Origin: a virus
Taxonomy: Duplodnaviria; Heunggongvirae; Uroviricota; Caudoviricetes
Length of the DNA: 12,799 nucleotides
Direction: 5' to 3' (one strand)
Virus record (IMG/VR): IMGVR_UViG_2693429524_000004
Location: 1 to 12,799 of that record
Part shown: positions 3,001 to 9,000 of the stretch, piece by piece
How positions within the stretch are numbered: the stretch's first letter is position 1
Layout: each line of letters starts with the position of its first letter
Position numbers: made by a program

Positions 3001-6000
3001 TCGGAAGGGCAGCCAGCAACAGGCCACCCTGCAATGGCATATTGCATGGTGTGCTCCTTATTTATACATAACGAAAACGCCTCGAGTGAAGCGTTATTGG
3101 TATGCATATAAAAAAGCCCTCACACTGGAGGGAAAAGAAGATTTCCAATAATCAGAACAAGTCGGCTCCTGTTTAGTTACGAGCGACATTGCTCCGTGTA
3201 TTCACTCGTTGGAATGAATACACAGTGCTTATTCGCAGCCTACATAATCATTCCGGTTATTATTACCATTTCAATATCACTATCTTTCATAATGATTGGA
3301 GTTGAGTTATCAACTTTACTTTTACTCCATTTTCCTGCATCAGTTTTTACCGCTCCACAATAAGAAAGCCAATCATCATCACAATGTTCTGGATCACTAA
3401 TTCTGACAAGAACACGTGATAGTGCTTTTTCGATACTTTCATCACAATTAGCATTTGTGTAATTGCCGTGAGACAATTTCAAATCGTTAACTTCATCTTC
3501 ATTGGCATCAAAAATATAGATTTCAGTCGACTCTGGAACATTTTCATAAACCATTAAAACTTTCATTTTTACCCCATATTGTTTATGCCAAAAATAAAGG
3601 CCACCATCAGGCAGCCTTGTTGTAAATGTTGCAGGTATCAAGTAAGTAATTAGATGGAGCGCCATAAATTATGAATTCATCGTTTGTCGGGTCCATCTCT
3701 TGGCCTATTGCCATTCTTGCGTCAGTGTCATCAGAGGCGAAGCATAAAACAGCCCACGCACCCATTGTTTTAAAAAGAACTGCAATTGGCTGTGGTTTTA
3801 CTGAATTTGCGTTAGCGCGAAAATCACAAATCGCACTTTCATGAAATTCCATATCTCAACTCAATCGTAATAAGCTGGAATTGATTTTCCGCGTTGTTTC
3901 TGGCGGCCTGAGCAAGTCACACCCATTTCACTGCGTGGCTTGCTGTAGTAAATACGGTTCTGTTTACGCTCGACTTCTTCTGCCTTCTTGCAGCGAAGGC
4001 TTCCGAGTGATATTGCTTTTTCAGAAAGGCTTAAACGTTTTCTCGGGGCTTCCTGAACAGGTTCCTCACTGTCTGTGCCGAAGATCGAATCGATGATGTT
4101 GCATATAGCATCACGCTCGATAGCCAGCTTTCTGCGCCGCTCATGACGGCGAGTTTTGGCATTTCCTGCAAATGTTGATTTCCCGCACACGATTACCGTC
4201 ATGATATTTTCCTCATGTGAAATGGCTTTGGTGGTGATGCGCCAGGTGCTGATCTTCTGGTTGCTGTCGTTGCAGCTGCAATTCACATCACCGCCAAACC
4301 CATCTCGTTTGGTATCTGTTTGCGCTTTGTCAGCGCCCCATCGAAGTTAAAGAGCCTGCCAATCTGTTCCGTTTGGCTTCCAGCTTCCTGCTGATGGCGA
4401 TAATAATGAACCAATGGTTCGATATTATCAAGAACTAATGGTACGAAAATTTTGTGATTTATTAACTCTACGAAATATGATTTTGATATATAAGGAAATT
4501 TATTTTTGTAAATGTTGCGGATGAAGGTTATGCGGCAGGGATCAGAATTTCGTGGTTTAGCAAGTTGTATCTATCAATTTTTCAATAAATACAATTGGTT
4601 ATGGTGTTATTAGGTGTGGCGAACGTGAGGCAAAGAAAACCCGGCTCGGTGGCCGGGTTGATGATTAGCGGTGTGGCCTTGAGCGATAATGCTCACACAC
4701 ATGTTCAAGATTTCCATGCCTTATCCGTTCATAGGCATTCACATGAACTTCTCGATCGAATTGGTCATTCAAATTGTATGTAGACATCTGTGTTTTCTCA
4801 TATTGGCGGCAGCCCTACAACCGCTTGAAAAAATGTACCAGACGCGCTAAGGTTACATCGCAAATATTGTGTACCTTAACAAGGGCTCCTTTTGGAGGCT
4901 CTGGTTAAACAGCATCAATGTCGGACTGGGGAGTTGGACATTGTGCTGAATGCTTTTGCATTATTGAGGCCGAACGTAAACCTTCAGAATTGAAGAGATG
5001 CGTTCGGCTTCTTCGTTTGTGATATCGTTAGGAATGCCTTTAATCGTTACTGTAACCCCTGATTCAGGTCGAAGAACTACTGGAAGATCATAGGTATGAA
5101 GTGCATTAGCCTTGCCTTCGACTTTTGTTGGTTCGCCAGCCAAATCTTTTTCCTCACTGGATTCTTTGTCAATCGGAGTGTATGGGATTTCTTCACCAGA
5201 CTGGAAAGCTACAAACTTTTTGATTGCACTTTCCATGCGGCTTTTATATGCAGTAATGCTGCTGTCGCTAGGCTTCGGCTCAGTTGCGTTGATGTATCGC
5301 TCGGCAAGCTCATTCACATCAAGCTGAGTAACATCACCCATTTCCTCTTCTTGGACTACCGTTAAGAGGCGAGCGGATGAGTTTTTTAAATTTCGAGCGG
5401 TGGCCTCCTTCATTATGTTCAGCGACATAAGCTCTTCAAGGAAGTCCTTGAATGCCTGCACGCTAACGTTTGACTTTGCCATTTGCTCTCTCTCTAAGTT
5501 ATTGACTCAGATCGAGTTTATCCAGGAATTGATTTGCATGCAAGACTCAAGTCTTGAGAATTTCCGTTCAAGATCCACTCTCAATAAAAAAGGCCGCACC
5601 TCTGCGACCTTTCATCTCCTAAATCTATTTCTCTTACCTAAAGAAACAGCAGGCTGGGTCAGCCCTAACAACTTCAAGCGCATCAGTCAGCGAAAGTTCA
5701 GTACTGTACTGATGCCATTTCATATCCTTCCGCATCCAATAGATTTTCCATCTATCCAGAGAACGTATGTACTTGATTCTTGCTGATGGCAGGATGTTTG
5801 TTTCACCTGGGTTGCCCTGCCACACGGGGCGCTGTTCGCCGATATCTATCGTTTGGTCATTGATGCTATAAACAATATCCAGTTCATTGCGGATATGTTC
5901 AGGCGGCCTTATGCTTTCAATGAATTGGTGAACTTCTTTTTTGACCGCTTGATATTCAAGGTCAGTGAACGCCATCTATCCTCCTCACCCAAACGTTTCT

Positions 6001-9000
6001 TCTGGCCACTGGTTACCAGCTATGTGACGATGAAGTCACGAACTTTTCAGCCACTCCCTTGCCTCGATGTCATCCAGATGGCGAGATTGCTTCAGAATAC
6101 CAGCTACATACTCCACCTTTGCTACTTGATGATAAGGCAACGTTATAGGCCTGTGATCCTGGTTAATGCTTGTAAATTGGTATTCTCCATCTCTGTCATA
6201 GCCAAGAACCTTAATCATGTTGTGTCCTTCAACGGTTCTGACAAACACCTCATCACCCGGGAATACTTTGGTGTTAGGCTCAATGAGCACATATTCTCCT
6301 GATTTTATTCTGGGCCACATGCTGTCTCCTTTTACACGAAGACCAAAGGCATCTGGATCATCGCTATAAATCTTGAGCCACCCATCGCGCTCTTCGGTCA
6401 TCTCGATGGCACCATCAACACCAAGAATTGCCTCACCAACCACGCGCACTAACCCTTTTTTTAATTTGCCAACAAATGAAAGAGTATCTTCATCATTCGC
6501 TCCATTTAACGAAGTTCCGTGCTGAAGCCAAACAACATCAACGTTTAGAAATTTCGCAAGCGCATTCATTTTTTCCTGACGCGGTAAAGACTCAGCATTA
6601 AACCATTTGCTAACGCCTTTGGACGAAAGAGAAAGGGCACGGGCTATGGCCATCCCCCTACCATGTTCATCAAGACCAGCTTCTTTACAGGCTTGCGCTA
6701 GCCGCTGGGCGAATTCTTTGCGCACTTTTTCATTCTGAACCATGAGTACGATACTAAAGCACTTGCAAAAACTTTCAGTTCAATCATAATGCGTACTGAA
6801 AGTACGAAAAAGGATATTCCTATGCAAAATCTTGATGAGCCGATTAAAGGTGTCGGCATCCCTGAAGTTGCGAAGGCTTGTGGAGTTAGCGAAAGGGCTG
6901 TCTATAAGTGGCTCAAAAACGGCTTCCTCCCTAAGACTGAGTTTTTTGGGAAAACTAAATACGCATCAAAAATCGAAGAGATTTCTGGTGGCAAATATCA
7001 AGCAAGCGAAATGCTTGAAATAAGCAAAAAGAACCTTCTGGCTGCATAAGTAACACCGCTCTTTATCAATCTGCACCGCCGACAACGCGGTAACTAATTA
7101 ATCACCCATCGAAAGATGGGTATTAGTGATTATTTACCTATGGAAATAGTAAGAAATGGAACAAACAAGTTACAGCAAACTATCACAGCGCGACGTTGAT
7201 CGCGCAGAAACAGATTTACTCATCAACCTGTCAACGCTTACCCAGCGCGGTCTGGCAAAGATGATTGGCTGTCATGAATCGAAGATAAGCAGAACGGACT
7301 GGAGATTTATTGCTTCGGTCTTGTGTGCTTTCGGAATGGCATCAGATATCAGTCCGATTAGCAGGGCTTTTAAGTATGCGCTTGATGGACTCACCAATAA
7401 AAAACGCCCGGTGTGCAAGACCGAGCGTTCTGATCAAATACAAATGGAATTTTAACAACATCCAGCGAGGTAATTATATGCGAAAAACGCAGGAAAATAA
7501 ACGCGTTAATCACCGAAAAGATGTGCTACGTGACCAGTTTTATCAAGGGGTTAATCCAGCAATAGCTGTGCCACTGAGAGAAATACTTAACAGGTACAAA
7601 ACTTCGGAGAAGTCAAAATGAGCATGAATCTTATGGCTAAGGCCATGAATATAAAGGTTGGCAACCCACTGAGAAAACTGGTTCTGATTAAACTTGCCGA
7701 TAACGCCAATGATAATGGCGAATGCTGGCCTTCATATCAACATGTCGCTGACCAGTGTGAGGTGAGCAGATCGACAGTAAAAAATCACATTAGGGCACTG
7801 GAAGAGATGGGGCTTTTGAAAAGGGAACTCAGAAGAAAAGGAGAGCTTAACCAGTCAAACGTTTTTTATCTGACGCTGGATAATGCACAACAAATCCAAC
7901 CAGAATCAGGTGGGGCAGGAGCTGCCCGGGGTGGGGCAGGAGCTGCCCGGGGTGGGGCAGGAGCTGCCCTAGGGGGTGGGGCAGGAGCTGCCCCCAGAAC
8001 CTATCACTCTTTTGAACCAGTCAATGAACCTAAAAACATTATGTTCGAACATGTCCGAACAGAGTGTGAAAAAACTCCTGACCGTCACGAAGAAACCGAC
8101 AAGGCGTTCGAGGAAATATTCTGGTGTGCAGGCATGCGGAAAGCCGGGAAGAAAAACGCAGCTTCAGCATTCAGAACACAGTTCAGGGAATGGCGTAAAA
8201 CTACCAGGGGTACGGCAAGCGAGTTTGCCACGATGCTGGCAGAAGACATCGCATGCAGGAATGGTAAGCAGTTCGGATTCGACAGGTTGTTACCATCGAG
8301 CTACCTGAACGGTCAGCGCTGGAACGACGAGAAGCCAGAAACTATTCAACCACAATCCAAACCATCATCCGCAATCACCGTATCGAAAACTGGCTACGTG
8401 TTTTTCGACAGGTGAACCATGAAATCAAAAATCAAATCGCTACTGGTCGCTGGTTATAACCACGGCTGGTTAAGTATTTCGTTTGTCGATTTCTGGTTTA
8501 AAAATCTCAATCTGAGGGAATCATGAGGCCAAGTGAACTCAGCGACCTGCTTTGGGCGCAGGTTGACAGGGTGGCTCCGCACCTGTTGCCAAACGGCAAG
8601 AAAGAGGGGCATGAGTGGGTTGCCGGTAACGTCAACGGTGACAAGGGAAACAGCCTTAAGGTCAACCTTAGCGGCAAGAAAAAATGGGCTGATTTCGCTG
8701 AGGGAGACGGCGGTGACATGCTTGATTTGTGGATGGCATGTCGTGGAATTAACCTGCATCAGGCTATGCAGGAAGCGAAAGCATTTCTCGGTATCAAGGA
8801 TGACGATCACCATTTCGATGCCAAACGTGAGAAGAAATTCTCCAGACCTGACCGCAAGAAAATCGCCCGCTACGTTACCAGAACAGAATCCCATCTTGAG
8901 TACCTGCAATCGCGTGGCATATCGCCAGAAGTCGTAAAGCGCTACGAGGTTGTCAGCGGCAAGGTGTGGAATGGAGAACGAGAACTTGATGCACTGGTGC

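Follow-up and report, generated by a model that had tools for sequence, protein, structure and literature searches.

What fills the interval between the repressor gene cI and the early promoter pL of a lambdoid prophage, and whether its contents act as a single system, is the question raised by a stretch of 12,799 nucleotides (nt) from a virus of the Caudoviricetes (IMG/VR record IMGVR_UViG_2693429524_000004, positions 1 to 12,799), referred to here in its full length as the window. What it contains is the early part of a Shiga toxin (Stx) phage-type lambdoid prophage. The cI-N slot is where temperate phages keep lysogen-expressed genes, and several classic and recent defence systems have been found there; it is a recognised mosaic hot spot, holding rexAB in lambda, bstA in BTP1 and stk in 933W. 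A preliminary description of the window placed a three-gene cargo block in this slot, bracketed by terminators, and proposed by comparison with rexAB that it might serve in exclusion, abortive infection or some other anti-phage function. The account favoured here, held with rather less than even confidence, is that this is the variable cargo slot of a prophage of 933W immunity and that it contains two independent units, one consisting of the repressor gene and a DUF3024 gene and the other of a gene for a 173-amino acid (aa) protein, a structured RNA and a very small open reading frame (ORF). The block is carried by Stx2 phages of E. coli O157:H7, and a description as two units, with a portable protein-RNA-microprotein module and a separable DUF3024 gene, would replace the vague annotation of “hypothetical proteins”.

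On the minus strand, cI is followed by ORFs of 113, 173 and 40 aa and then by N; cro and then cII lie on the plus strand beyond cI. The parts of the two units, as read from the sequence and with names from the phages VT2-Sakai (prophage Sp5) and 933W where they apply, are as follows.

6036..6743, minus strand: cI repressor gene (235 aa, 933W immunity type, with HTH_3 and Peptidase_S24 domains), heading unit 1
5985..6011, minus strand: remnant of a lambda/Sakai-type cI 3' end (QWPEETFG-stop), before the Shine-Dalgarno (SD) sequence of the DUF3024 gene
5634..5975, minus strand: DUF3024 gene (113 aa, orthologue of 933W L0084), with the SD sequence GAGGAGG at 5980-5986
5586..5609, minus strand: intrinsic terminator, putative end of the cI-DUF3024 transcript (GGTCGCAGAGGTGCGGCC plus T6; folding free energy (dG) -15.9, z -4.1)
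5515..5543, minus strand: putative sigma-70-type promoter of unit 2 (-35 TTGCAT at 5538-5543, 17-nt spacer, -10 TAAACT at 5515-5520, then TCGATC)
4961..5482, minus strand: gene for an acidic 173-aa protein of the Sp5 ECs1184/H0093 family (isoelectric point 4.85; phrog_2602, E 5e-102)
4788..4960, minus strand: structured spacer RNA of about 173 nt, between the 173-aa and 40-aa ORFs
4665..4787, minus strand: His/Cys-rich 40-aa ORF (VT2-Sakai H0092; phrog_21154, E 5e-8)
4632..4659, minus strand: intrinsic terminator closing unit 2 (AACCCGGCC..GCCGGGTT plus TTTCTTT; dG -14.5, z -3.5)

The three ORFs and the acidic character of the 173-aa product are as the preliminary description had them, and the two terminators that it flagged are real. 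None of 200 shuffled sequences folded as well as either hairpin, and Salmonella, Proteus and Serratia have both of them in matching positions. Terminator-like sites are frequent in the region as a whole, a scan finding nine against 3.0 +/- 1.4 expected. In Cronobacter, the downstream terminator is present and the upstream position has a first hairpin with a weak T-tract followed by a second terminator. Counterparts of the 5586-5609 hairpin precede each 173-aa gene examined, with changes in the loop in Salmonella, Cronobacter, Proteus and Serratia; upstream of the gene in Salmonella, Proteus and Serratia there is a hairpin GGTCGCAGAnnTGCGGCC plus a T-run, which lies directly after cI in loci without DUF3024. 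In 933W-type loci the same hairpin follows the DUF3024 gene but has no T-run, so that the transcript can run on into L0083-stk. The equivalent of the terminator at 4632-4659 is annotated as the terminator of the pRM/pM transcript in both VT2-Sakai and 933W.

The putative promoter between the first terminator and the 173-aa gene was read from the sequence, being too weak for a consensus promoter scan. Its pattern, TTGC[A/G]N-17-TA[A/G]A[C/A]T followed by TCGATC, is common to Proteus, Cronobacter and Salmonella, with a poorer fit in Serratia (TTGACT-17-AAAAAT), and is the lone conserved exception in intergenic DNA that is otherwise 40-70% identical past the hairpin. No LexA box (CTGT-N8-ACAG) was visible on reading the sequence upstream of the 173-aa gene. 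Because a conserved terminator and promoter separate the DUF3024 and 173-aa genes, and because the two also occur separately in other genomes (below), the block divides on comparative grounds into two predicted units and not one: cI, the DUF3024 gene and a terminator in unit 1, and a promoter, the 173-aa gene, the spacer, the 40-aa ORF and a terminator in unit 2, which would be transcribed from its own promoter. The proposed likeness to rexAB therefore holds for the position between cI and pL, but not for a single module, since an internal terminator and promoter precede the last two ORFs and co-transcription with cI can be argued for DUF3024 alone. A GATC (Dam) site just past the -10 element, at about 5505-5515 on the minus strand, is retained in E. 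coli, Salmonella, Cronobacter, Proteus and Serratia despite diverged surroundings.

The DUF3024 gene begins 60 nt beyond cI, behind its strong SD sequence, and a terminator scan of this gap found none, both as first described. With this arrangement it is almost certainly co-transcribed with cI and would be made from the maintenance promoter in every lysogen. The product, initially called DUF3024-like, is a true member of the family, matching PF11225 over residues 4-112 of 113 (E 1.2e-30; 106.4 bits against a cutoff of 24.9). It also matches phrog_3467 and, over its full length, the PADLOC candidate PDC-S43 (PDLC05018, E 2.2e-41), and is to that extent a candidate single-gene defence system, and nothing beyond that. 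There is one mention of PDC-S43 in the literature, as a “phage defense candidate” predicted in one strain, and none of DUF3024 in the literature searched. The AlphaFold2 (AF2) model (pLDDT 90.5) consists of a helix, a five-stranded antiparallel sheet and another helix; a Foldseek search of the PDB with it gave no match at E <= 0.001 and weak matches resembling frataxin, XisI and YkuJ. A sequence search of the PDB with the DUF3024 protein, the 173-aa protein and a 58-member profile found nothing below E 0.07.

The block is a mosaic of two phage types. The cI product is 100% identical to 933W CI, and the DUF3024 protein is 96% identical to L0084; over 4537-6012 the window shares 94.6% identity with VT2-Sakai, Nil2, phage 2851 and numerous further Stx phages, whose repressor is a different one. 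In a three-way alignment the window is 933W-like from cI to about 5674 and Sakai-like beyond, which puts the joint inside the last dozen codons of the DUF3024 gene and makes that gene chimeric. The family's invariant residues are kept, except that a nearly invariant C-terminal glycine is replaced by arginine; this arginine-ending tail derives from the Sakai copy, which is a pseudogene. VT2-Sakai shares the terminators and a unit 2 that is 99.5% identical (its 173-aa gene being H0093, or ECs1184), and differs in its repressor and in having DUF3024 broken into fragments, whereas the 173-aa and 40-aa genes are intact there and the window has all three. The relic at 5985-6011 matches the end of the Sakai cI product (...SQWPEETFG), so the ancestral DUF3024 gene evidently began within a few bases of a repressor stop codon.

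Elsewhere, DUF3024 genes follow repressors in prophages of E. coli, Salmonella and Proteus. In Erwinia, near tail genes, one heads a set encoding DUF3024, a 153-aa protein, Stk and a 47-aa protein; in Rahnella it stands alone, and in Pantoea it has other partners. At one Pantoea locus (L012, 4388-5658) it is followed by a 322-aa protein of no assigned family and a DUF4325 (STAS-like) protein, possibly another partner set. In a Salmonella prophage (L019, 2236-3273), a 345-aa protein without Pfam or PADLOC match is encoded in its place between cI and the 173-aa gene.

Unit 2 has a wide distribution of its own. An Sp5-like version occurs in 233 of 5,426 complete E. coli genomes. The 173-aa gene lies directly after cI, without DUF3024, in Serratia, Cronobacter and Salmonella, and its product (73-99% identical) adjoins at least five different repressor alleles. 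Pseudescherichia vulneris has the set together just downstream of Q, with a 173-aa gene of 83% identity and a small ORF of 41 aa on either side of the spacer; HNH, TerB and lysis genes follow. More distant relatives of the protein are encoded in the nin region of Klebsiella-like prophages (36% identical) and, at one non-prophage locus, between housekeeping genes (29% identical). A small Cys/His-rich ORF and a terminator were found downstream of the 173-aa-type gene in all 12 lineages examined; a scan of genome contigs gave four loci only. These positions mark unit 2, as far as comparison of loci goes, as a self-contained mobile module.

In several respects it resembles the morons of lambdoid phages, having its own promoter, terminators on both sides, copies at the cI-N and Q sites and distant kin in nin. 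It is unlike them in comprising two ORFs and a structured RNA instead of one gene, and in its composition, which is that of its flanks: the GC content is 0.446 in the 173-aa gene, 0.455 in cI and 0.459 over the window as a whole. The preliminary description had taken the block to be more AT-rich than its surroundings and had seen in this a trace of moron acquisition. At 0.448 for 4629-6035 the GC content is close to that of the flanks, so the compositional argument fails and AT-richness was rejected as a sign of acquisition.

The 173-aa protein of the window differs from Sakai ECs1184 in a single residue. A profile search of 1.8 billion representatives returned 644 cluster representatives, of about 160-200 aa, that match end to end. 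The AF2 model and the family alignment together suggest an N-terminal four-helix domain (motifs TARNLKNS and YKSR), a variable, disordered, acidic linker, and a C-terminal strand-strand-helix domain with the motif PIPLRxGLxVxIxxLPxDLTxxEAERIA. The four-helix bundle of the N-terminal 95 residues repeatedly gave weak matches to three Pfam SAM-like families and, by fold, to integrase N-domains, all of them sub-threshold; Foldseek searches of the PDB and BFVD with the whole model had no match at E <= 0.001 and weak ones to integrase N-domains. The likeness to tyrosine recombinases is in this SAM-like (core-binding) fold. There is no catalytic R-H-R-Y domain, so the protein is not a recombinase. 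It has no Pfam, PADLOC or NCBIfam family match, NCBIfam giving nothing for the DUF3024 and 40-aa proteins either, and none of the three products was recognisable in Pfam, PHROG or NCBIfam as an ordinary regulator or structural protein, in keeping with the preliminary description, which had called them unrecognised.

Downstream of the 173-aa gene, the spacer appears to fold into three elements. Hairpin H1 (4910-4948) directly follows the stop codon (dG -16.6, z -6.3), a multi-branch domain, P2 (4837-4905), has three compensatory pairs, and in P4 (4793-4833) a U-run pairs with AUGAGAAAA, the SD region of the 40-aa ORF. A 341-nt fold that includes the spacer has a z of -5.4. Identity to Cronobacter and Salmonella is 92-93% for the spacer, against 81-82% for the coding sequence of the 173-aa protein. 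In an alignment of four sequences of the window type, five pairs have changed in a compensatory way and 97.8% of cells are paired, compared with 32-45% in controls in which the partner strand was slid. Lineages with other types of partner ORF (types B and C, below) have a different-looking spacer of about 100 nt in which 19 of 30 pairs are compensatory and 93.8% of cells are paired against 32-45% when slid, in an alignment fitted to the model, which favours structure. A covariance model built from these relatives (R1) recovers the element, in the same place, in the 29%-identical non-prophage locus. In the window and in the relatives alike, the last helix covers the SD sequence of the small ORF. 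Rfam had nothing at gathering score for either type of spacer, with chance-level E values (1.9-4.7) for that of the window. Sequence comparison supports a structured RNA well in the relatives and moderately in the window's own type. In one Salmonella copy (L017), the inner 16 nt of the 4910-4948 hairpin are, with one mismatch, the reverse complement of the E. coli version, so that the top of the hairpin is flipped and the stem retained.

The 40-aa ORF is retained in Cronobacter, Salmonella and P. vulneris, with ratios of synonymous to non-synonymous codon changes of 9/6, 6/2 and 7/5. Its homologues keep MSTYNLN...VHVNAYERxRxGNLEHVCEHYRSRPH, of which the core VHVNAYERxRxGNLEHVCEHYRSRPH is invariant, and have one indel, which is in frame. 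It probably encodes a genuine protein and forms a pair with the 173-aa gene. Just three proteins were found in a homologue search, small ORFs being seldom called. An antisense ORF of 53 aa (4689-4850) was rejected as a gene; it is truncated in Cronobacter, and the substitutions fit the sense frame. The ORFs in this position fall into three sequence types, that of the window being type A. Type B is basic, with ...GYRWxxCRFRRTRAKAGTPDSERKVLDAHxYGYKCWSF..., and type C is a CxxC...CxC zinc ribbon; the one Pfam match to any of the small ORFs is a treble-clef zinc finger, below threshold, for type C. The types are discordant with the phylogeny of the large protein and so have the look of cassettes that can be swapped. 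At the distant locus outside prophages (L020, 4740-4870), a type B ORF aligns over its full length with an in-frame TGA at the conserved Tyr of GYRW, possibly a pseudogene, read-through or a sequencing error.

Some published data bear on the Sp5 copy. In a K-12 lysogen, Mondal et al. (PMC5155283) made in-frame deletions of all Sp5 genes of unknown function and failed with only two, ECs1180 and ECs1184, which they suggested are needed for stable lysogeny; ECs1184 is thus the sole Sp5 early gene besides ECs1180 to resist deletion. The deletions were made by two crossovers with cloned flanks and a sacB suicide vector, and the step that failed is not stated. This one published phenotype points to lysogen viability or maintenance, and not to exclusion, the role first proposed for the block. 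The window has a counterpart of ECs1180, an 81-aa ORF just downstream of N (3607-3852, minus strand) that is 96% identical to it. In a study of the RNA-associated proteome of uninduced cultures, ECs1184 was analysed at a false discovery rate of 0.065 (PMC7618764). An orphan Hfq-binding site, EcOnc20, is listed by Tree et al. (PMC4104026, Table S2) on the Sp5 minus strand at 1255628-1255753, detected in four data sets out of five. Mapped onto the Sakai record as it now stands, this interval takes in the end of the small ORF, the terminator and some 75 nt past it. By calibration with AsxR, the published coordinates perhaps lie about 135 nt below that record, and with a shift of this size the peak would fall over the SD region and the first part of the small ORF. 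With either reading of the coordinates, RNA of this strand and of unit 2 exists in uninduced cells, and together with the proteome study this speaks indirectly for expression of the unit from the repressed prophage.

Comparison with known occupants of the slot shows what is shared and what is not. The 933W operon, cI-L0084-L0083-stk-L0081-tM, has the identical repressor, DUF3024 in the same place, the same hairpin after it and the same final terminator before OL/pL. The window is unlike it in lacking L0083, the Stk kinase and L0081 (no Ser/Thr kinase gene was found downstream of DUF3024 in the window by ORF and Pfam analysis) and in having the Sakai-type 173-aa/40-aa unit instead; the post-DUF3024 hairpin has a T-run in the window only, and the joint lies within the DUF3024 3' end. 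The 933W Stk is a PD-T4-6-type PADLOC match, and stk is also present in two other of the loci compared (L003 and L013). With lambda rexA-rexB the block has in common the cI-pL slot, probable expression in the lysogen and, for unit 1, a predicted place on the repressor transcript, but lambda has one operon with an internal promoter where the window has two terminator-separated units, and no homology of the three proteins to RexA or RexB was found in Pfam, PHROG functions, NCBIfam or PADLOC. BstA of the Salmonella prophage BTP1, which gives abortive infection, and Hex of phage 434, which stabilises the repressor, are encoded like these by single lysogen-expressed genes directly past the repressor. 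Unlike BstA, the window proteins have no KilA-N domain or any Pfam family other than DUF3024; Hex was compared by description only. Lysogen-expressed cargo in the cI-N hot spot is thus of a well-known kind, the sequence became public with the VT2-Sakai and 933W genomes, and DUF3024 has already been flagged as a defence candidate. For the protein-RNA-microprotein organisation of unit 2 and its spread, no description was found in the literature searched.

For the function of unit 2, the reading that best accounts at once for an undeletable large gene, a gated small gene and moron-like mobility is a switch of toxin-antitoxin-like or abortive-infection type, put forward tentatively. In such a switch, the spacer RNA would keep the ribosome-binding site of the small ORF closed, and the 173-aa protein would restrain the small protein, either through the spacer RNA or by binding it directly. 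Loss or titration of the 173-aa protein, for example on infection by another phage, would then release the small protein and stop the cell. A logic of this kind would account for ECs1184 alone being undeletable, and if it operates it matters for how stably Stx prophages are kept and for the use of phage therapy against enterohaemorrhagic E. coli (EHEC). It is likewise possible, if on balance doubtful, that unit 2 stands for a new and widespread class of RNA-gated defence or addiction module in three parts, the first an integrase-SAM-like protein that stands alone, the second a structured RNA acting in cis and the third a zinc-binding micro-protein that can be exchanged. The Stx phages of O157:H7 would in that case carry a prophage-borne defence or addiction system that hops between prophage moron sites. 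Several observations weigh against these proposals. The two genes are 173 nt apart and do not overlap like those of classic type II toxin-antitoxin pairs, and neither product matches a known toxin or antitoxin family in Pfam, PADLOC or NCBIfam. The failure to delete ECs1184 may have been technical, as ECs1180, the other failure, also flanks pL/N. ECs1184 gave no better an RNA signal than the green fluorescent protein control in a polynucleotide kinase (PNK) assay (PMC7618764). All five compensatory pairs in the window-type RNA come from a single one of its four sequences, and the R1 model has no match (about 1 bit) in the window spacer, for which reason homology of the two RNA types is not claimed. 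As regards unit 1, the DUF3024 protein may be impaired by its tail, with arginine in the place of glycine.

Other explanations of the block were considered. Of these the least improbable, though still rather unlikely, is that each unit is an independent anti-phage gene set of undescribed type, without toxin-antitoxin logic, the 173-aa protein for example binding incoming phage DNA. An anti-phage role for either unit is plausible by analogy with the hot spot's record of rexAB, bstA and stk (PD-T4-6), and 173-aa family members sit at classic moron sites; function does not, however, follow from position alone. The anti-phage candidacy that the preliminary description gave to all three proteins is upheld for DUF3024, as PDC-S43, but not for the 173-aa and 40-aa proteins, which have no PADLOC match. 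A good deal less likely than the switch proposed above is that the 173-aa protein is a lysogeny-maintenance factor acting on its own prophage's switch, whether by Hex-like protection of CI from RecA-stimulated cleavage or by silencing of pL, the small ORF and RNA being incidental. This is what the authors of the Sp5 deletions proposed (PMC5155283), and it would suit a unit that adjoins OL/pL and encodes a protein whose N-domain resembles the DNA-binding SAM-like domain of integrases; Hex of phage 434 is a precedent for a cI-adjacent gene that stabilises lysogeny. A protein 73-99% identical is, however, found beside at least five different repressor alleles, the 83%-identical copy by Q is far from any repressor, distant kin occur in nin and outside prophages, and an accessory of the switch has no need of the conserved linkage to a small ORF and RNA.

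To much the same low degree, unit 2 might be mainly a regulatory-RNA locus, the spacer and the 3' part of its transcript forming an Hfq-dependent small RNA (EcOnc20) that acts on host or prophage mRNAs, with the 40-aa ORF encoding no functional protein. The Hfq peak on this strand in four of five data sets, the highly structured spacer, which is more conserved than the coding sequence, and the many EHEC prophage small RNAs at moron sites would all fit. The codon-position bias and in-frame indel of the 40-aa ORF argue instead for translation, and relatives hold three types of Cys/His-rich small ORF at the same place; EcOnc20 itself is without northern confirmation, and its coordinates are uncertain by about 135 nt. 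Finally, a single rex-like operon, in which all three ORFs are transcribed with cI and exclude superinfecting phages as one system, has very little to recommend it as a probability. It would agree with the position between cI and pL, with the PADLOC candidacy of DUF3024 and with the placing of the pRM terminator after the last ORF by the depositors of VT2-Sakai, and, terminators being leaky, a degree of read-through from pRM is likely. Against it, both the internal terminator and the internal promoter are conserved, and the parts are found independently of each other; Sp5 has a broken DUF3024 gene beside two intact ones, and Pfam shows no similarity to RexA or RexB.

Beyond the block lie the following features.

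4403..4475, minus strand: candidate pL with OL operators, at the downstream edge of the cargo slot
3861..4286, minus strand: N gene (N_peptide, E 6.7e-25)

The preliminary description had pL directly downstream of the block, and a scan found a promoter-like site there (TTGATA-17-CATTAT, 4431-4403). The half-site [CG]TACGA has just four occurrences within 4200-7200, two here (4441 and 4468) and two in OR (6746 and 6802); a promoter-like site together with operator half-sites common only to OR places pL/OL just downstream of the block. The intergenic stretch around them (4287-4628, GC 0.380) is the sole low-GC part near the block. The lowest GC content of the window, 0.335 in the profile, is at 3201-3600, over a 141-aa ORF of the pL operon (3240-3665, minus strand; phrog_4658/phrog_31828), and if any part of the window is compositionally foreign it is this stretch and not the cargo block. 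Further along the same strand, 3002-3060 matches the lambda cIII thermoregulator RNA over its full length (Rfam RF01804; 88.5 bits, gathering score 50), and a cIII-like ORF lies just downstream. On the plus strand, a replication-initiator-like ORF (7618-8415) holds the peptide repeat GGAGAARGGAGAARGGAGAALGGGAGAA, which suggests tandem DNA repeats within the initiator gene, possibly origin iterons like those of lambda O.

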